Position numbers and translations under genes: made by a program. This document shows positions 51,443-59,835 of a DNA stretch of 64,000 nt, one piece after another. The notes under the pieces are model-generated. The model searched no databases. It had not been told where the DNA came from and saw only the letters and a list, made by a program, of their open reading frames with translations. Where the stretch lies: NCBI RefSeq assembly GCF_056712565.1, contig NZ_CM160072.1; one strand, 5' to 3'. Numbering within the stretch: the stretch's first letter is position 1; each line of letters opens with the position of its first letter.

Positions 51443-52132
51443 TTAACCGTTAGTTAATTTTTCAAACTCTTCACAACCGGTATCAAATCCTTCCATACAG
51501 CTCAGATTCAACCAGTGCAGCGCCTTTTGTTTATTCTTCTCGATAAAACCCTCTTCACCGTTTAAGAACATCATTCCCGCCCAGTATTCGGAATAACCGG
51601 TTCGGGAAATCGCGGAGCTACGCTTGAAATACCAGGTTGCTTTGTCATCGTCGGCCTTAATGCCCACGCCGTTGGCGTAAATCAAACCAAGCAGCATTTG
51701 GGCATCGACGGCAGAGTCGTTCTCCAGATCTTCCGAGGCGTTTTCTAACAGCGAAATCGCCTTTGGATAATCCGGTTTACCCGCTTGCGTATTTACCAGA
51801 ATATGCGCCAGCGTTACTTCACCTTCTTTACTGCCCGCTTGCGCTGCTTTCTCGGCAAGCACTTTTGCTTGTGGATAGTCCAGACTGACCGGATTGGTGA
51901 TTTTGATCTGCGCCAACAGCGCACAGGCATCGGCATCACCGCTGTCGGCGGCTTTCTGTGCCCAATATTCGGCTTTGCTCAAATCGCCGGAGCTAAACCA
52001 GCTGTCGGCAAGAAAATATTGTGCGCGTCGGTCTCCGGCCTCTGCTGCCTTTAAATACTGGCTGCCAGGCTCGGAGTCGTTCGCGTGGGCAAAGAATGTC
52101 AAAAACAACATCAAAGTGATAATTTTTTTCAT
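51443..52132 (-). CDS. yjcO: Sel1-repeat lipoprotein YjcO
   Basis: ORF-track ORF 51443-52186 trimmed to ATG at 52132 (MKKIITLMLFLTFFAHA signal); 229 aa. Confidence 0.85.
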   Translation of the reverse strand: MKKIITLMLFLTFFAHANDSEPGSQYLKAAEAGDRRAQYFLADSWFSSGDLSKAEYWAQKAADSGDADACALLAQIKITNPVSLDYPQAKVLAEKAAQAGSKEGEVTLAHILVNTQAGKPDYPKAISLLENASEDLENDSAVDAQMLLGLIYANGVGIKADDDKATWYFKRSSAISRTGYSEYWAGMMFLNGEEGFIEKNKQKALHWLNLSCMEGFDTGCEEFEKLTNG

Positions 52133-52242: not shown

Positions 52243-52947
52243 TTAATCCATCCGATGTTCCCCCTTTTCCATGGCGTCGCGATCAAAAAATCGCTGAATT
52301 TTTCCCTCGGACATCAATGCCGCTCGATCAGACATATGCGCGATGACATCGGCATCGTGACTGACCAGCAGATATGTCATTTGGTGTTCCAGCTTAAGTT
52401 GATTCAACAAATTAAGGATTTCCGCTTGTACCGACATATCCAACGCCGAGGTGGGTTCATCCAGCAGAAGAAGTTGTGGTCGTAACAACAGGGCGCGAGC
52501 AATAACCACACGTTGCCGTTGACCACCGGAAAGCTGGTGTGGGTAGCGACGAGCGGCGTCGAAAGGCAAGCCAACCTGTTCCAGTGCAGTCTGGACGCGT
52601 TTTTCTATTTCTCTTTCGCCACGAATTTTGAGTGGTTCAGCCAGCGTTCGCCACAGAGTATGATTGGGATGCAACGAGGCATAGGGATCCTGAAACACCA
52701 TTTGCACATTGCGGCGGAGATCGCCTTGAAAACGCATTCCTGGTTTGATGGTGTGCCCAAACAGTGACACCTGACCGTGCCAGTCGCGCTGTAATCCAGC
52801 AATTACGCGCAAAATCGTGGATTTTCCGCAGCTTGATTCGCCAATTAAACTAAATGTCTCTCCGGCATTAACCGAAAAACTGGCGGCAGAAACTGCGGTT
52901 TTCTCAGCAAAAGTCACCTGTAAGTGATTAATTTCAACAATCGTCAT
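52243..52947 (-). CDS. ABC transporter ATP-binding protein (short, NikE-type)
   Basis: 234 aa; Walker A GESSCGKST; signature LSGGQRQR; Walker B LLLLDEPTSALD; no C-terminal oligopeptide-transporter extension. Confidence 0.85.
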   Translation of the reverse strand: MTIVEINHLQVTFAEKTAVSAASFSVNAGETFSLIGESSCGKSTILRVIAGLQRDWHGQVSLFGHTIKPGMRFQGDLRRNVQMVFQDPYASLHPNHTLWRTLAEPLKIRGEREIEKRVQTALEQVGLPFDAARRYPHQLSGGQRQRVVIARALLLRPQLLLLDEPTSALDMSVQAEILNLLNQLKLEHQMTYLLVSHDADVIAHMSDRAALMSEGKIQRFFDRDAMEKGEHRMD

Positions 52948-53770
52948 GGTATTTCTCCGGCGTCATTGCCGTCCTGTCCAGCGTCGGCAGCATCTGCCCG
53001 TAAGTTTGTGCATTTGGGCGGCAAGTCCACAGTGTGCGCGTGTAAGGATGCGTTGCTGTAGGTAGCGCAGCAGCGTGCATTTCATCCACCTTATTTCCCT
53101 GATACATCACCAGCACCCGATGGCAAAATTGGGCAACTAATGGCAGGTCGTGACTGATCAGCAACATTGCCATCTGACGTTGTTCACACTGGGTAACCAG
53201 CAGTTCCAGAATCTGATTACGCAGGCGCACATCCAGTGCTGATGTTGGCTCATCGGCAATCAATACCCGGGGATCGTTGATGAGCGCAATTGCAATCATC
53301 ACTCGCTGCCCCATGCCGCCAGAAAGTTCACGAGGATAGCTTTGCAGTACTCGCGTATTGAGGCCGACAGCCTGAATTGCGGTGTTTATTTTCTCTTCTT
53401 TCTCGCGGCGGTTCAGACGTTGATGGAGCGTAAGCGCCTCTTCCAGTTGCGCTTTTACTGTCTTTACTGGATTAAGCGCGTAACGCGGATCTTGCAATAC
53501 CATCGCGATATCGTTACCGCGCAACTGTTGCCATCCACGCGCGTTAAGGGTGAGTGCATCACGCCCCAGAATGTTAAGTGTGTCCGCGGTTACTACACCC
53601 GGTTTACGCACCAGCCCCATCAGGGCGCGGGCGGTCATGGACTTACCTGAACCCGACTCACCGACCAGCGCCAGACGTTCATTGCCTAATGTAAAACTGA
53701 CATTGTTGACGACCCGGGACTCCGGATAATCGACGCAGAGATTGTTGATACTAAGACGTGAGTCAGTCAT
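52934..53770 (-). CDS. ABC transporter ATP-binding protein (short, NikD-type)
   Basis: ORF-track ORF 52934-53830 (TTG) trimmed to ATG at 53770 (MTDSRLSINNLCVDY...); Walker A GESGSGKS; signature LSGGMGQR. Confidence 0.8.
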   Translation of the reverse strand: MTDSRLSINNLCVDYPESRVVNNVSFTLGNERLALVGESGSGKSMTARALMGLVRKPGVVTADTLNILGRDALTLNARGWQQLRGNDIAMVLQDPRYALNPVKTVKAQLEEALTLHQRLNRREKEEKINTAIQAVGLNTRVLQSYPRELSGGMGQRVMIAIALINDPRVLIADEPTSALDVRLRNQILELLVTQCEQRQMAMLLISHDLPLVAQFCHRVLVMYQGNKVDEMHAAALPTATHPYTRTLWTCRPNAQTYGQMLPTLDRTAMTPEKYHDDC

Positions 53771-54596
53771 GTTGAGGCTCCAGAACATCGCGCAAGCCAT
53801 CACCCAGCAGATTAAAGGCCAGACTGGCAATTAAGATAATTGCGCCGGGAGCGGCGGCAATCCACCATTGATCAAAAATGACCTGCATACCGTCGGCGAT
53901 CATGGCTCCCCATTCCGCCATTGGCGGGCGAGCACCAAGCCCAAGAAAACCCAGGCCAGCAGCCGCCAGAATGATACCCGCTAAATCCAGTGCCAGACGG
54001 ACAATGGCAGATGGCAGGCACAATGGTAAAATATGACCAGCCAGCAGACGCCTGCCGCGGATGCCCATCATTTCTGCGGCGGCAAGATAATCACTGTGTC
54101 GCAGACGTTGGATCTCACTCCGTGCCTGACGCGCATAAGCAGGCCAGGTGGTTAATGCCAGGGCCAGTGCGCCGTTAACCAGCCCCGGCCCCAGCATGGC
54201 AACAAAAGCAAAAGCCAGAATTAAACGCGGCATTGACATTACTACGTCAGTAAAACGCATCAGCACGCGTTCCAGCCAGCCGCCGTAGTACCCGGCTAAA
54301 ATGCCAATCAGCAGACCGACCGGGAGTGTAATGATTGTCACCAATGCCACCAGCCCCAGTGCCGGGCGGCTGCCGTAGATTAAACGTGAAAGTAGGTCTC
54401 GTCCGTAACTGTCAGTGCCGAGCCAGTGCTGACGACTCGGTGCTTGTAACCGCGCCGCCGCATCCTGCCAGTTAGGATCGTGAGGTGCCAGCCACGGCGC
54501 GAAGAGCGCAATTAGCATTAATAACAGGATAATTATCAACCCGCAAAACGCGGCGGGTGAATGGCGTAAACGGCGTAAAAAGAGAAACATCGGCAT
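53763..54596 (-). CDS. ABC transporter permease (NikC/DppC-type)
   Basis: 277 aa; six predicted TM helices; BPD-transporter region around AFAFVAMLGPGLVNGALALALT. Confidence 0.85.
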   Translation of the reverse strand: MPMFLFLRRLRHSPAAFCGLIIILLLMLIALFAPWLAPHDPNWQDAAARLQAPSRQHWLGTDSYGRDLLSRLIYGSRPALGLVALVTIITLPVGLLIGILAGYYGGWLERVLMRFTDVVMSMPRLILAFAFVAMLGPGLVNGALALALTTWPAYARQARSEIQRLRHSDYLAAAEMMGIRGRRLLAGHILPLCLPSAIVRLALDLAGIILAAAGLGFLGLGARPPMAEWGAMIADGMQVIFDQWWIAAAPGAIILIASLAFNLLGDGLRDVLEPQHD

Positions 54597-55645
54597 CAGC
54601 GTAACCTCGGATCGGTCAGCCGGACCAGCAGGTCGGTTAAGTTATTTATCAACACAAAGCAGACGCCAATCAGCAGCGTTCCTCCCATGATTGCTGTGGT
54701 ATCACCCGCGAAGAGCGCTGTAGTGAGGTAGCGCCCAATACCTGGCCATGAAAAGACGGTTTCTGTCAGTACCGCGCCTTCCAGCATTGATGTATAGGCG
54801 AGGGCGATAACGGTGAGCAAGGTGCCGCGAATGTTGGGTAAAACATGACGTAGCAAAATTGTCATCTCGCTGGCCCCTTTGGCGCGCGCCAGCAGAATAT
54901 ATTCTTTATTCATTTCGCCAAGACAGGCGGAACGAGTCAGGCGCGTAATACTGGCGAGCGAGAAGTACGCCAGTAATAAAACCGGAAGTATCAAATGGTT
55001 GATTGCATTGGTAAATGCCTCGCGATCGCCAGAAAGCCACGTATCAATCAGCGCAAATCCGCTGCGGGGTTCTATGGTGAATTGATAAATATCATCCAGC
55101 CTGCCCGGCCCGGCACTCCATTGCAGTCTGGCGTAGAACAGCGCCAGCATCAGCAGACCAAGCCAAAAAACAGGGACGGAATTTCCCAGTAGAGTTAATG
55201 TTCGCACGGTGAAATCCAGCGGAGAACCGACATAACGGGCGCAAAGTACACCCGCAATGACGCCGACAACAGCACCGACAATAAGCGCCAACGTTGCCAG
55301 TTCAATGGTCGCCGGGAATACTGATAGCAAGTCCTGGAGTACCGGTTGCCCGGTGGAGCTGGCGATGCCCAGATCGCCGTGTGCCAGATTCATCAGGTAA
55401 TGCCAGAACTGGACGGCTAACGGCTGATCCAATCCTAACTGGTGGCGTACCTGATCATAGGTGGACTGGCTGGCGTGATCGCCAACGATTTGTAGTACGC
55501 GATCGACCGGTGAGAGAGCCGAAAGCGCAAAGGTAATCAGCAGCAGGCCGAGTAGCGTCAGAGCAACGGTAAACAGCCCTTGCAACAGCGCGAGCAGAGG
55601 GCGCTTGCCTCGCCATCTCGCGCGAGTGGAAAAAACGACAGACAT
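54596..55645 (-). CDS. ABC transporter permease (NikB/DppB-type)
   Basis: ORF-track ORF 54596-55738 trimmed to ATG at 55645 (MSVVFSTRARWRGKRPLLALL...) because the intergenic stem-loop occupies the extension; start is uncertain. Confidence 0.75.
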   Translation of the reverse strand: MSVVFSTRARWRGKRPLLALLQGLFTVALTLLGLLLITFALSALSPVDRVLQIVGDHASQSTYDQVRHQLGLDQPLAVQFWHYLMNLAHGDLGIASSTGQPVLQDLLSVFPATIELATLALIVGAVVGVIAGVLCARYVGSPLDFTVRTLTLLGNSVPVFWLGLLMLALFYARLQWSAGPGRLDDIYQFTIEPRSGFALIDTWLSGDREAFTNAINHLILPVLLLAYFSLASITRLTRSACLGEMNKEYILLARAKGASEMTILLRHVLPNIRGTLLTVIALAYTSMLEGAVLTETVFSWPGIGRYLTTALFAGDTTAIMGGTLLIGVCFVLINNLTDLLVRLTDPRLR

Positions 55646-55691
55646 GATCTTTCCATACAGTGATAAATCAGCGGCTGGCCTGCAATACAGG

Positions 55692-55725
55692 CCAGCCCTG
55701 GTACCGCGCCCGGTAACAGGGCTGG
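55692..55725 (-). other. intra-operon stem-loop between the binding-protein gene and the first permease gene
   Basis: CCAGCCCTG-(16 nt)-CAGGGCTGG, 9-bp stem, read directly. Confidence 0.5.
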
Positions 55726-55744
55726 ACGCGAGTTGCATACAGGG

Positions 55745-57313
55745 TTATTTGGTTACCTGATCAAACCAGACCATATCGGCATTCAACCCTTGTTGATACC
55801 CCTGCACATTATCACGCATGACAATTTGCGTTTTGCCTTGATCAATAAAGACATACGGGGAACTACGTTGTAGTTCTTGTTGCATTTTCTTATACAAATC
55901 AAGACGTTTAGTGCTATCAGGTTCAGCGATGGCCGCCAGCGTTTCTTTGTTCAGTTCCGGGATTTTCCAGCCGTTTAACCCGGCAACGGTGCTGGATTTG
56001 CCATCGTTATAGGCGAAAGAGCTGGCGTTGGAATGTGCGTCAAAATAATCAGGCAACCACATACGAATGGCCCCCTGATGCTGGTGGGCGCGAACGCGAG
56101 AGTAGACCTGACTCCCTGCGGCTGGCAGCAAATCAACTTTTACACCGCCCTGAGCAAAGCTGGCCTGAATTGACTGCGCGATGGTAATAAATGGCGGTTT
56201 ATTTTCGACATCAAGCGTGAAGTGCGGGTCTTTGATTCCGGCTTTAGCGAGGATCTCTTTTGCTTTGGCTGGATTAAAGGTAAACGGTGTTTCTTCCAGT
56301 GCTCCAGGAAAGCCCACGGGCAGGAAACTTTGATGGGTAAAATATTGTCCTTTTAAGAGATTTTTGGTGATGCCGTCGTAATCGACCAACCAGCGAGCGG
56401 CCTCCCAGAACGCAGGATTACTCATCAGCGGGTTATCCTTGTTACCGGTATTGAAGGCCAGGTAGTTCTGTTCGGCGGAGGCAATGCTCATCACTTTTAC
56501 GCCAGGTTTACCCTGTAATGCATCGATTTGATCGGCTCCCAGATCACGAGCCATATCAGCATCACCTTGTTGGATCAGCAGGCGACGCGTTGCCGGATCG
56601 GGAACATTTTTGATGATGACGTTTTTCAGTTTCGGGGCGCCGGTTGGTGAGCTGGCGTTGGCTTCCATCACGATGGCCTGATGCGGTTGGTAAGTACGCA
56701 TTTTAAACGCGCCGCTGCCAGCGGAATGCATCTTCAGCCATTCATTACCAAAGTCGTTATTTTTGGCGTTTGGCGCAACCAGCTTCTCGTCAACAATTGA
56801 GGCGATTGGTGTGGAGAGAATATTCAGTGCCAGCGCCGGGCTGACGTCGGCACTCCATTGCACCTGGACGGTATGGTCATCGATTTTCTTCAACTGGCTG
56901 GCGATATTTTCCGGCTGCCATCCCAGCACATTGAGAATAAACGCACCGGATTTATTCAGTGTGACAGCCCGGACATAAGAGTAAATCACATCTTCCGGGC
57001 GTACCGGATTACCAGAGGCAAATTTCGCATCGCTTTTCAGTTTTATGGTTAGCGTTTTGGCTGCGGGGTCAGCCTGCCAACTTTCCGCCAGAATCGGAGT
57101 GATTTTCGTCGGATCATTACGGTCCGGTTGTACTACGCGTTGATACAGACTTGGTACAGTCTGAATACTTGAGAGTTCATTAGCTTCTGCCGGGTCCAGA
57201 CTCACAATATCATCCAGTCCCTGGGCTACAACCAACGTATTAGGCGGTGTAGCGGCAACGGTTGTGGCGGAAATTGTGCTTAAAACCAGTAAAGGTAATA
57301 GTTTTTTAATCAT
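55745..57313 (-). CDS. ABC transporter periplasmic substrate-binding protein, family 5 (NikA/DppA/OppA-like)
   Basis: 522 aa; signal peptide MIKKLLPLLVLSTISATTVAA; size typical of cluster C SBPs. Confidence 0.85.
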   Translation of the reverse strand: MIKKLLPLLVLSTISATTVAATPPNTLVVAQGLDDIVSLDPAEANELSSIQTVPSLYQRVVQPDRNDPTKITPILAESWQADPAAKTLTIKLKSDAKFASGNPVRPEDVIYSYVRAVTLNKSGAFILNVLGWQPENIASQLKKIDDHTVQVQWSADVSPALALNILSTPIASIVDEKLVAPNAKNNDFGNEWLKMHSAGSGAFKMRTYQPHQAIVMEANASSPTGAPKLKNVIIKNVPDPATRRLLIQQGDADMARDLGADQIDALQGKPGVKVMSIASAEQNYLAFNTGNKDNPLMSNPAFWEAARWLVDYDGITKNLLKGQYFTHQSFLPVGFPGALEETPFTFNPAKAKEILAKAGIKDPHFTLDVENKPPFITIAQSIQASFAQGGVKVDLLPAAGSQVYSRVRAHQHQGAIRMWLPDYFDAHSNASSFAYNDGKSSTVAGLNGWKIPELNKETLAAIAEPDSTKRLDLYKKMQQELQRSSPYVFIDQGKTQIVMRDNVQGYQQGLNADMVWFDQVTK

Positions 57314-57601
57314 ATGCTTCCCAATCCCTGAAATTACTTTGAGGTTATTAATATGCTATCAGACGGGGTTTCGCTGCATTAATCGCGCCAGAATATCCCG
57401 TTAATAGAACGAGTTAAACGGTCGATGATTTCTCACCTTACCGAAATTTTGTTTATCAAATGTAAAGTATTATTACGTTAGGCCGCGATGAGAATTGAGT
57501 AAAGATAATTCTCATTTGCAATCGTGACTGGAATAGAAGAACAACCGAGAAGACGTCGCTAATAACCAGGATGGGCTGGTTTGACTGCGCAGGTATGTAT
57601 A

Positions 57602-57635
57602 AAAAAATCCGGAAACAGAGAGTCGTTTCCGGATT
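57602..57635 (-). terminator. rho-independent terminator of fdhF
   Basis: ATCCGGAAAC-(8 nt)-GTTTCCGGAT with a 7-A run on the plus strand (U-tract on the minus-strand transcript), 53 nt after the fdhF stop. Confidence 0.7.
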
Positions 57636-57687: not shown

Positions 57688-59835
57688 TTACGCCAGTGCC
57701 GCTTCGCGCAGGCGAGTTTTCAACTTGTTGTACTCGTCAATCACGTACTGCTCGGCGGCGCGCTGATCGGCGATCGGCTCGACGCGCACGGCGCAGTATT
57801 TGTATTCCGGCGTTTTCGTAATCGGGCTTAAGTTTTCGGTCACCAGCTCGTTACAGGCACCAATCCACCACTGGTAGGTCATGTAAATCGCCCCTTTGTT
57901 CGGACGATCGCTGACCTGCGCACGGGTGATAATTTTGCCTTTACGCGAGTGCACCCAAACCAATGCCTCATCTTCAATACCCAGACGTTTGGCGTCTTCG
58001 GTATTGATTTGTGCGTAGCCAGGTTCATCAGCCAGCGCCGCCAGTGCCGCACAGTTACCGGTCATCGAACGGCAAGAGTAGTGACCAACTTCACGCACCG
58101 TTGACAGTACCATCGGGTACTCGTCGGTGAGTTTGTCGATTGGCGCTACCCAGTCGCAGGTGAAGAACTGCGCCAGACCGTTCGGGGTATCAAACTTCTC
58201 TTTAAACAGATAAGAAGTCCCCTGATCGGCATCTGAAGTATCGCGGCAAGGCCACTGAATGAAGCCCAGTTCGCCCATTTTCTCGTAAGTCGCACCGTAG
58301 AAATCCGGGCACAGATGACGCAACTCGTCCCAGATCTCCTGGGTGTTGTTGTAGTGCATCGGATAACCCATACGAGTGGCAATTTCACTGATGATTTGCC
58401 AGTCCGTTTTCAGATCCCACTTCGGCTCAACCGCCTTGAAGAAACGCTGGAAGCCACGGTCAGCCGCAGTAAACACGCCTTCATGCTCGCCCCACGACGT
58501 TGACGGTAAAATGACATCCGCCGCCGACGCGGTTTTGGTCATAAAGATGTCCTGAACGATAACCAGTTCCAGATCTTCAAAGGCTTTACGTACTGCCGAC
58601 AGTTCCGCGTCAGTTTGCAGCGGATCTTCGCCCATAATGTACGCCGCTCTCACTTCACCATGCGCCACGCGGTGCGGCAGCTCGCTGATACGATAACCGG
58701 TATGAGCAGGCAGGCTTTCCACGCCCCAGGCTTTGGCAAATTTCTCGCGGTTAGCCGGATCTTTCACGTACTGATAGCCCGGATACGTATCCGGCAGCGC
58801 GCCCATATCGCAGGCACCCTGCACGTTGTTCTGACCACGAACCGGGTTTACACCCGCATGTGGCTTACCGAGGTTACCGGTCAGCATCGCGAGGCTGGTC
58901 AGAGAACGCACGGTTTCCACGCCCTGATAGAACTGGGTTACCCCCATGCCCCACAGGATGGCGGCGCTTTCCGCCTGGGCATACATCCGCGCCGCCTGAC
59001 GAATCTCACTGGCGCTGACGCCGGTGATATCTTCAACCGACTCCGGCGTGTAGCCTTCAACGATTTTACGATACTCTTCAAAGCCTTCTGTACGGGAAGC
59101 GACGAACGCTTTGTCGTACAGATTTTCTTCAATAATGACATGGCCCATCGCATTCAACAGCGCGATGTTCGAGCCGTTTTTCAATGCAATGTGCATGTCA
59201 GCAATGCGCGCGGTTTCAATTTTACGCGGATCGCAGACGATAATTTTCGCCCCGTTACGTTTAGCGTTAATTACGTGATTCGCCACGATTGGGTGGGAAT
59301 CCGCCGGGTTATACCCGAAAACGAACACTAAATCGGTATTATCAATTTCGTTAATAGCATTGCTCATTGCGCCATTACCGACCGATTGGTGCAGACCTGC
59401 AACCGATGGGCCGTGTCAGACACGAGCGCAGCAGTCAACGTTATTGGTACCAATAACGGCGCGCGCAAATTTTTGCATTACATAGTTGGTTTCGTTACCC
59501 GTACCGCGCGAGGAGCCGGTCGTCTGGATGGCATCCGGACCGTACTTCTCTTTGATGGCGCTCAGGCGCTCGGCAACGTAATTCAGTGCCTCATCCCAGG
59601 AAACAGGTTCGAGTTTGCCGCCACGCTGGCGACGGATCATGGGGGTTTTCAGGCGCGGGGTCAGGATCTGGGTATCGTTAATGAAGTCCCAGCCATAATA
59701 ACCCTTCAGACACAGGGTACCCTGGTTGGTTTTCCCCTGCGCTGCCTCCGCCCGGACGATTTTGCCGTTATCGACGACCAGGTTGATTTTGCAACCTGAT
59801 GCGCAATAGGGGCAAACCGTGACGACTTTTTTCAT
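57688..59835 (-). CDS. fdhF: formate dehydrogenase H (selenocysteine- and molybdopterin-containing), with in-frame UGA Sec codon at 59416-59418
   Basis: ORF-track ORFs 59416-59835 (139 aa, ...VDCCARV) and 57688-59367 are in the same frame, separated only by TGA; joined product is 715 aa reading ...CARV-U-HGPSV...; N-terminal 4Fe-4S motif CPYCASGC. Confidence 0.95.
59375..59418 (-). other. UGA(Sec140) codon and immediately downstream SECIS region of fdhF mRNA
   Basis: Position of the in-frame TGA read directly; SECIS extent (about 40 nt 3' of the UGA) is placed from knowledge of fdhF, not folded here. Confidence 0.7.

Follow-up and report, generated by a model that had tools for sequence, protein, structure and literature searches.

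The window analyzed here is a 64,000-nucleotide stretch of Escherichia coli DNA (contig NZ_CM160072.1 of assembly GCF_056712565.1) that is identical to the genome of E. coli ATCC 11775 (NZ_CP033092.2). The minus strand between positions 52243 and 57313 carries five intact, closely packed open reading frames (ORFs), which encode a substrate-binding protein (SBP), two permeases, and two ATPases. These five genes, referred to here as the module, are located between yjcO and fdhF. The reading favored here, and considered reasonably probable, is that the module encodes an ATP-binding cassette (ABC) importer of a distinct subfamily of the PepT family, that its ligand is a dipeptide-like nutrient, and that it is ancestral at the yjcO-fdhF site.

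In the proposed mechanism, the secreted SBP of 522 amino acids would capture its ligand in the periplasm and hand it to a heterodimeric permease (349 and 277 amino acids). Two different minimal ATPases (278 and 234 amino acids) would power transport, which is predicted to be inward. Its ligand is most likely small and dipeptide-like, with a free amino group that would be recognized by an invariant aspartate (Asp422) of the SBP. The compound would be taken up as a nutrient, and it may be a peptide that is modified or contains sulfur. Before E. coli and Escherichia albertii diverged, the operon was already present between yjcO and fdhF, and phylogroup B2 alone retains it within E. coli.

The B2 lineage supplies most extraintestinal E. 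coli pathogens, including sequence type 131 (ST131), uropathogenic E. coli, and neonatal meningitis E. coli. A conserved, intact importer that B2 kept and all other phylogroups lost is a candidate for a trait of niche adaptation and marks the lineage cleanly. The module also defines an orthologous group across the Enterobacterales that includes Klebsiella, Enterobacter, Serratia, Yersinia, Proteus, and Morganella. At present, the module is an ordinary uncharacterized Dpp/Ddp-like transporter; a link to nickel and formate hydrogenlyase does not hold.

Gene content of the locus

The features of the module are listed below in the direction of transcription.

55745–57313, minus strand: SBP, 522 amino acids, SBP_bac_5 family (ORF; RefSeq WP_000592281.1)
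55673–55697, minus strand: GC-rich hairpin, 11 bp with 8 GC, in the 99-nucleotide spacer between the SBP and permease 1 genes (hairpin scan)
54596–55645, minus strand: permease 1, 349 amino acids, DppB/DdpB-like (RefSeq start; NCBIfam DppB, 242 bits)
53763–54596, minus strand: permease 2, 277 amino acids, DdpC/NikC-like (NCBIfam Opp2C, DdpC, and NikC, approximately 276–279 bits, below cut-off)
52934–53770, minus strand: ATPase 1, 278 amino acids (sequence motifs; Pfam ABC_tran only)
52243–52947, minus strand: ATPase 2, 234 amino acids, minimal nucleotide-binding domain (sequence motifs; Pfam ABC_tran only)

A preliminary description of this locus, made from the sequence alone, had placed five co-directional genes at 52243–57313, one for a binding protein and two each for permeases and ATPases. 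The ORFs and the RefSeq annotation of NZ_CP033092.2 match that account, and all three agree in their coordinates. The last four genes abut or overlap, with overlaps of 1, 8, and 14 nucleotides, which indicates an operon. The hairpin in the spacer downstream of the SBP gene may stabilize the transcript or cause partial termination, leading to an excess of SBP. This role is suggested because operons for ABC importers are commonly organized in this way.

The module is flanked downstream by yjcO (51443–52132) and upstream by fdhF (57688–59835). The latter reads as two ORFs (559 and 139 amino acids) owing to an in-frame selenocysteine TGA codon and is annotated in RefSeq as one selenoprotein. Only 93 bp separate yjcO and fdhF in K-12 strain NCM3722, and the module is thus missing from the K-12 gap, as had been stated earlier. 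Literature searches on the yjcO/fdhF region, WP_000592281, phylogroup B2, and SfnB together with dipeptide returned nothing on this operon.

Binding protein, permeases, and ATPases

The SBP, as read from its sequence, has an N-terminal signal peptide (MIKKLLPLLVLSTISATTVAA|TPP) and is free of cysteine. Its protein cluster (P0001) carries Pfam PF00496. The AlphaFold2 model of the SBP has a mean predicted local distance difference test score of 95.6, with low values for residues 1–20 only. The fold is that of a standard cluster C binding protein, and Foldseek matched it to DppA, GsiB, MppA, and NikA with a probability of 1.00. All PDB neighbors of the model are approximately 16–23% identical to it. 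The Foldseek search of the PDB did not tell peptide binders apart from nickel binders, and the closest neighbor has approximately 21% identity.

The permeases and ATPases were typed by NCBIfam matches to B-type permease, C-type permease, and D/F ATPase models, together with the Pfam domains of orthologues. Orthologues of permease 1 carry BPD_transp_1_N and BPD_transp_1, and those of permease 2 carry OppC_N and BPD_transp_1. ATPase 1 contains a Walker A motif (GESGSGKS), a signature motif (LSGGMGQR), a Walker B motif (VLIADEPTSALD), and an H-loop (SHD). Beyond the core it has a tail of approximately 40 residues that includes an HPYT remnant. The corresponding motifs of ATPase 2 are GESSCGKS, LSGGQRQR, LLLLDEPTSALD, and SHD. 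By these motifs, the catalytic set is complete in both ATPases.

Neither ATPase contains the oligo_HPY domain (PF08352), even at E ≤ 10 in Pfam; ABC_tran was the only domain found. The earlier observation that both are short (234 and 278 amino acids) and lack the C-terminal extension of Dpp and Opp ATPases is therefore upheld. The component set of a PepT transporter (TC 3.A.1.5) is complete, with a secreted family-5 SBP, an OppB-type and an OppC-type permease, and two different ATPases. Components and family models agree in this respect with the initial classification of the module as a complete Nik/Opp (PepT)-family ABC importer.

Family placement

None of the five proteins reached an NCBIfam equivalog cut-off, and their matches were solely to PepT-family models. 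The SBP scored alike against nikA (111 bits), DppA (107 bits), and GsiB (105 bits), all far under the respective cut-off. When K-12 paralogues were ranked by BLASTP against MG1655 proteins, Ddp came first for four components and Dpp next, with Nik near the bottom. Identity is 29.5% between the SBP and DdpA (E = 6e-46), 44% between permease 1 and DdpB (39% to DppB), 45% between permease 2 and DdpC, and 44% between ATPase 2 and DdpF (34% to NikE). The best K-12 matches of ATPase 1 are DppD (39%) and YejF (42%).

A neighbor-joining tree with 100 bootstraps was constructed from the SBP, 18 homologues (28–86% identical), and the K-12 paralogues, using YejA as the outgroup. The SBP and its 18 homologues form a clade with 100% bootstrap support, and every K-12 paralogue is outside of it. 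DdpA is a weak sister of this clade (58%), and NikA is the outermost ingroup sequence. A profile of the subfamily matched 5u4o, HbpA, DppA, and GsiB in the PDB at approximately 260–296 bits, and NikA at approximately 187 bits. A PDB search with the SBP sequence also gave DppA, HbpA, GsiB, and 5u4o as the best matches, with NikA approximately 100 bits lower. The profile search of the PDB found no solved structure inside the subfamily.

A phylogeny of the SBP had been proposed in the preliminary description as a check, with a position inside a characterized peptide-specific clade named as the refuting outcome. That outcome was not observed: the SBP is outside the characterized peptide-binding clades, in a subfamily of its own, and it does not group with NikA. 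With the SBP forming its own subfamily, a metal substrate is disfavored. Short ATPases (approximately 273–294 and 221–263 amino acids) recur in distant members of the subfamily and are thus a subfamily trait, not a Nik signature. The label of a Nik-type or metallophore importer, which had been drawn from ATPase length alone, is not retained here; Ddp and Dpp are nearest, and Nik is among the most distant.

DdpABCDF, the putative D,D-dipeptide ABC transporter of E. coli, is the closest K-12 system for four of the five components. DdpA shares a W-x-P-D-(Y/F) motif with the SBP, and both lack the loop that carries Arg355 in DppA. The Ddp ATPases, however, are 328 and 308 amino acids in length, and permease 2 scores 278 against a DdpC cut-off of 434. 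The ddpX dipeptidase gene is not adjacent to the module. With only 29–45% identity and a separate clade, the module is not orthologous to DdpA-F.

DppABCDF, which imports dipeptides, haem, and ALA, has the same five-gene architecture, and DppA is the best sequence match to the SBP among solved structures (E = 4e-27) and is among the top fold matches. It differs in that SBP identity is 24% and that DppD and DppF carry the oligo_HPY domain, which the module ATPases lack. Scores against the Dpp equivalogs (score/cut-off) are 107/1005 for DppA, 242/590 for DppB, and 239/483 for DppC.

NikABCDE shares with the module its superfamily, its gene order, and short ATPases without oligo_HPY (NikD, 254 amino acids; NikE, 268 amino acids). 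Among the paralogues in the tree, only the YejA outgroup is more distant from the SBP than NikA. The Nik equivalog scores are 111/393 for NikA, 203/447 for NikB, 276/358 for NikC, 209/319 for NikD, and 187/333 for NikE. Those for Cnt are 84/800 for CntA, 218/440 for CntC, and approximately 203/380 for CntD/F. Opine-metallophore biosynthesis genes are absent beside the module, which has only yjcO and fdhF as neighbors.

The module belongs to the uncharacterized SBP_bac_5 subfamily defined by the tree, which is present in Rhizobium, Phyllobacterium, Sinorhizobium, Pantoea, Ottowia, and others. These members have 28–56% SBP identity, the same set of five genes, and short ATPases. The distant members are linked to peptidase or sulfur-acquisition genes, whereas the Enterobacterales clade stands alone.

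Ligand-binding residues

Residues were compared in a MAFFT alignment anchored on a conserved tryptophan, and NikA numbering was verified on the K-12 sequence. NikA Arg97, Arg137, and His416, together with Trp100, are the residues that bind Ni-(L-His)2. NikA R97, W100, R137, and H416 align with I126, V129, I170, and G438 of the SBP, which are invariant among the orthologues in the alignment.

DppA Asp408 aligns with Asp422 of the SBP, which is also invariant. Asp408 of DppA forms a salt bridge with the α-amino group of the peptide, and Arg355 binds its α-carboxylate. An equivalent aspartate is present in OppA, MppA, DdpA, and SapA, and is not present in NikA, which has a proline there, or in GsiB. 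In the SBP, this residue is part of the invariant motif W419-x-P-D422-Y-F-D-x-H-S-N.

Gene context of distant subfamily members

Peptidase genes are directly adjacent to the SBP gene in several distant members of the subfamily. A gene for an Xaa-Pro peptidase directly follows the SBP gene in Phyllobacterium and Loktanella (45% identity), and a dipeptidase gene directly precedes it in Sinorhizobium meliloti (41%). On a metagenomic contig (39%), the operon ends with a gene for a creatininase/MftE-family amidase.

Other members are located among sulfur genes. The Rhizobium homologues, which are the closest outgroup (56%), lie in sulfur islands on two different plasmids. One island has metNIQ, tauABC, and a luciferase-like monooxygenase (LLM) gene around the homologue; the other has genes for SfnB, a 2-oxoglutarate oxygenase, and a transsulfuration pyridoxal phosphate enzyme, together with cysE and an LLM gene. 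The Pantoea homologue (39%) is located between three SfnB-family genes, two of which score over the model cut-off, and an NtaA/DmoA monooxygenase gene. Further homologues are found beside a cysteine-desulfurase-like gene and a methionine-aminotransferase-like gene. The peptidase and sulfur contexts both fit a small peptide or an amino-acid-derived ligand, and neither fits nickel.

Orthologues and chromosomal sites across the Enterobacterales

SBP orthologues with 72–87% identity are present in Kluyvera, Klebsiella, Raoultella, Enterobacter, Kosakonia, Lelliottia, Leclercia, Buttiauxella, Cedecea, Mangrovibacter, Serratia, Yersinia, Proteus, and Morganella. In nearly all of these, the order of the five genes and the short ATPases are the same. 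The neighborhood survey covered 85 Enterobacterales loci. The module occupies at least seven different chromosomal sites, as follows.

Escherichia: yjcO/fdhF
Kluyvera: ycjF/tyrR
Klebsiella and Raoultella: beside betIBA
Yokenella, Lelliottia, and Kosakonia: entD-ybdK region
Buttiauxella and Cedecea: aer-proP/patA
Serratia and Yersinia: argI/pyrB
Proteus and Morganella: oppA/ychE

Because orthologous modules occupy at least seven unrelated sites in other genera, the fdhF neighborhood is incidental. Adjacency to fdhF had been offered as a clue to a metal substrate, and it loses its force with this neighborhood being unique to Escherichia. The other flanking genes were also considered as functional neighbors and rejected. 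The fes-fepA-entD, betIBA, argI/pyrB, ycjF/tyrR, and oppA/ychE genes merely mark different insertion sites. The putrescine aminotransferase gene beside the Buttiauxella and Cedecea module is patA itself, the module being located in the aer-patA gap.

The sole gene that travels with the module encodes a 231-amino-acid GNAT acetyltransferase of the Acetyltransf_3 class. It adjoins the module in 25 loci from nine genera with differing outer flanks, and is upstream and divergent in most loci and downstream in Kosakonia. Its nearest structures are 3tcv and 3pzj, which are uncharacterized. RimJ/RimL-type enzymes and MccE are distant relatives, the match to MccE being very weak (E = 0.004). No copy of the GNAT gene was detectable in E. 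coli at the DNA level. Enzymes of this class acetylate α-amino groups, and the linkage in 25 loci is counted in favor of a ligand with a free amino group. A narrower proposal is that the module represents a previously unrecognized PepT subfamily, having minimal ATPases and an SBP clade of its own, for modified or sulfur-containing dipeptide-like compounds, with a dedicated α-amino N-acetyltransferase as its partner in Klebsiella, Enterobacter, and related genera. Under it, B2 E. coli and E. albertii would be able to draw on a nutrient from the host or its microbiota that is out of reach for other E. coli. This proposal is tentative and is held with low confidence.

The putative Nik system of Proteus mirabilis is PMI2943-47. 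Proteus chromosomes, which are filed in PLSDB, have a NikA homologue (44%) approximately 1.7 Mb from the module SBP (72%), and the Proteus module adjoins opp. Apart from the NikA homologue and next to opp, the module is a third system in Proteus. An identity between the published P. mirabilis Nik system and this module was considered and rejected on the basis of these separate loci; PMI numbers were not mapped directly.

Some Serratia species (S. marcescens, S. inhibens, S. proteamaculans, and S. quinivorans; loci L006, L084, L088, L095, and L097) have the SBP gene alone between argI and pyrB. The orphan SBP is full length (522 amino acids) and belongs to a cluster of more than 1000 members. 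At the same site, the full five-gene module is present in other species of Serratia and Yersinia (L079, L080, L092, and L099). The intact orphan suggests that the Serratia SBP partners with another transporter or has a sensory role. A further arrangement is found in an Enterobacterales metagenome-assembled genome (L093, 8001–11300), in which a tandem pair of SBP genes precedes divergent permease and ATPase genes (57–69% identity).

Distribution and origin in Escherichia

The complete operon is present in 1043 of the 5426 complete E. coli genomes, at an identity of at least 99.4% in 1041 of these. Carriers include ST131, enteropathogenic E. coli E2348/69, and O2:K2:H1, all of which are established B2 strains. 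E. albertii (locus L021) also has these five genes between yjcO and fdhF. Compared gene by gene, the nucleotide sequences of B2 and E. albertii are 89–94% identical in the module and 86–96% identical in nrfG, gltP, yjcO, fdhF, and mdtP. Because it occupies the same site and has diverged to a similar degree as its flanking genes, the module is ancestral and as old as the split between E. coli and E. albertii. Judged from these genomes, it was lost in the ancestor or ancestors of the other E. coli phylogroups and is kept within E. coli only by B2.

The module had earlier been described as inserted between yjcO and fdhF. This view is reversed by its presence at the same site in E. albertii, with a divergence commensurate with that of its flanks. 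No target-site duplications, repeats, or mobile-element genes were found at the module junctions. The K-12 and B2 sequences become homologous again at TGTTTTTTT, upstream of yjcO. On the fdhF side, the terminator hairpin of B2 and E. albertii is unlike that of K-12.

57606–57635, minus strand: fdhF intrinsic terminator, B2/E. albertii form (12-bp stem followed by a T-run)

The hairpin that terminates fdhF in K-12 (CAGCCTCC-TTTC-GGAGGCTG) is absent from the window and has no counterpart in B2.

Probable promoter region and regulation

Over its full length, the spacer between the SBP gene and fdhF has 87% identity between the two species E. coli and E. albertii. It contains the following features.

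57457–57522, minus strand: probable promoter/operator, 66-bp block, 100% conserved between E. coli B2 and E. albertii (alignment)
57503–57498, minus strand: −35-like TTTACT, with a 17-nucleotide spacing to the −10
57480–57475, minus strand: −10-like TAACGT, within the conserved 66-bp block
57515–57488, minus strand: perfect 9-bp inverted repeat (ATGAGAATT-N10-AATTCTCAT), which spans the putative −35

The sequence upstream of the Klebsiella orthologue contains TTTACG-17-TAACGT, and that of Buttiauxella contains the weaker TTTGCG-17-TAACGT. A generic sigma-70 scan gave no score to the candidate module promoter. Taken as a whole, the region suggests a weak, regulator-dependent promoter whose regulator would be encoded elsewhere.

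The Escherichia dyad (57488–57515) did not match the NikR, Fur, or Zur consensus sequences tested. Neither Klebsiella nor Buttiauxella shares this dyad; their palindromes are different ones. The preliminary description had called for a check for Fur-, NikR-, or Zur-type operators upstream of the SBP gene. No Fur or Zur boxes were found anywhere in the window, and the NikR operator (GTATGA-N16-TCATAC) had a single match with three mismatches in the intergenic region, which is the frequency expected by chance. The module locus contains neither nikR nor another regulator gene.

In Klebsiella, the spacer between the divergent GNAT and SBP genes (L011, 7796–8000) contains a perfect 16-bp palindrome, ATAAGGATATCCTTAT, just upstream of TTTACG-17-TAACGT. 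This palindrome is a candidate operator different from the Escherichia one.

Substrate and alternative readings

Several points weigh against a dipeptide-like ligand. No characterized protein is found within the SBP subfamily, and the best solved structures are only approximately 21% identical. At approximately 25% identity, alignments can misplace single residues outside the W-x-x-D anchor. The carboxylate-binding loop of DppA (Arg355) is absent from the SBP, and position 446 is a leucine in the Enterobacterales clade versus an arginine in 76 of the 84 aligned subfamily sequences. Leu446 may reflect a shift in specificity in the Enterobacterales clade; with the Arg355 loop also missing, the carboxylate end of the ligand is probably handled differently. 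The peptidase and sulfur contexts come from homologues at 39–56% identity, not from orthologues, and no peptidase, GNAT, or regulator gene is adjacent to the Escherichia module. Many sulfate-starvation proteins are depleted in cysteine or methionine; the combined content of these residues in the five module proteins is not below that of their paralogues.

An importer of nickel or a metal chelate (metallophore), feeding the hydrogenase of formate hydrogenlyase, is the least probable of the alternatives weighed here and is scarcely credited. Both ATPases lack oligo_HPY like NikD/E and CntD/F, but short ATPases occur across the subfamily, including in members next to peptidases. The top NCBIfam match of the SBP is nominally nikA, but at 111 bits against a cut-off of 393 it is equivalent to DppA (107) and GsiB (105). 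The module adjoins fdhF in B2, but this neighborhood is confined to Escherichia. Few K-12 paralogues resemble the module proteins less than NikA, NikD, and NikE do, the tree puts NikA outermost, and the four NikA ligand residues checked are all replaced (by I, V, I, and G). The operon lacks any NikR, Fur, or Zur box, its lone three-mismatch NikR-like match being at chance level, and neither nikR nor metallophore-synthesis genes are adjacent. The nikABCDE genes are presumably still present in B2 strains. Published genetics in P. mirabilis touch both sides. According to a review of Brauer 2020, urease activity is absent in the ynt nik double mutant even in excess nickel. The review also states that nickel for hydrogenase can still be supplied by another, unidentified transporter after the loss of Ynt and Nik. 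Proteus has a module orthologue apart from its NikA homologue. On balance, the Proteus genetics count weakly against nickel import by the module.

Two further readings concern the nature of the ligand. Sulfur scavenging is rather unlikely as a whole. An organosulfur amino-acid derivative or S-peptide (for example, Cys-Gly, γ-Glu-Cys, or an S-substituted cysteine) would be imported, expression would respond to sulfate or cysteine limitation, and the GNAT of Klebsiella and Enterobacter would N-acetylate the imported compound. It draws on the sulfur islands around the nearest outgroup (Rhizobium, 56%) on two different plasmids, on the SfnB-family genes and NtaA/DmoA monooxygenase around the Pantoea homologue, and on the homologues beside cysteine-desulfurase-like and methionine-aminotransferase-like genes. 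The weak −10 (TAACGT) suggests an activator-dependent promoter, and the GNAT linkage also fits; N-acetylation is the first step in the salvage of S-substituted cysteine in Bacillus subtilis. However, none of the 85 Enterobacterales loci has a sulfur gene next to the module, the five proteins show no cysteine or methionine depletion relative to paralogues, other subfamily members accompany plain peptidases, and the GNAT copy is undetectable in E. coli DNA. Uptake of a non-nutrient peptide is very unlikely. The peptide would be a signal, comparable to the HEHEAA imported by AapF, or a toxic "Trojan-horse" peptide that the co-travelling GNAT would detoxify, much as MccE/RimL act on processed microcin C. 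The GNAT is of the Acetyltransf_3 class (related to RimJ, RimL, and MccE) and is linked to the module in either orientation and with different flanks, the best matches of the SBP in structure and sequence include AapF, and the module has no linked catabolic enzyme in the Enterobacterales. Against this, long and strong purifying selection (SBP identity of 72–86% from Proteus to Klebsiella) suits a nutrient better than a liability, most carriers, Escherichia included, have no GNAT, and the MccE match is very weak (E = 0.004).

Variant Escherichia loci and plasmid records

The record NZ_CP024131.1 (L104), labelled E. coli 14EC007, contains a module that is 91.9% identical to that of B2, and its gene for the 234-amino-acid ATPase is frameshifted. 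The spacer between the SBP gene and fdhF in this strain is the E. albertii sequence save for one position. By these sequences, 14EC007 is probably E. albertii or a recombinant.

In O157:H7 (NZ_CP076241.1; L003, 4986–6464), a deletion fuses a truncated ghxP to a truncated yjcO, both of which are annotated as pseudogenes. This deletion removes the stretch from ghxP to yjcO, including nrf and gltP. A 2026 bioRxiv paper on gene fusions born of deletions names yjcO 16 times and may describe this one.

Plasmid counts from the PLSDB collection are to be taken with care, as several of its "plasmids" are whole chromosomes of 4–5 Mb (Proteus, E. coli, and Klebsiella). Doubtful plasmid records are NZ_OL790811.1, NZ_OL790812.1, NZ_OL790696.1, and CP125156.1, and also NZ_CP048307.1 and CP054241.1. 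Two module-bearing E. coli "plasmids" (94 kb and 834 kb) are probably pieces of chromosomes.

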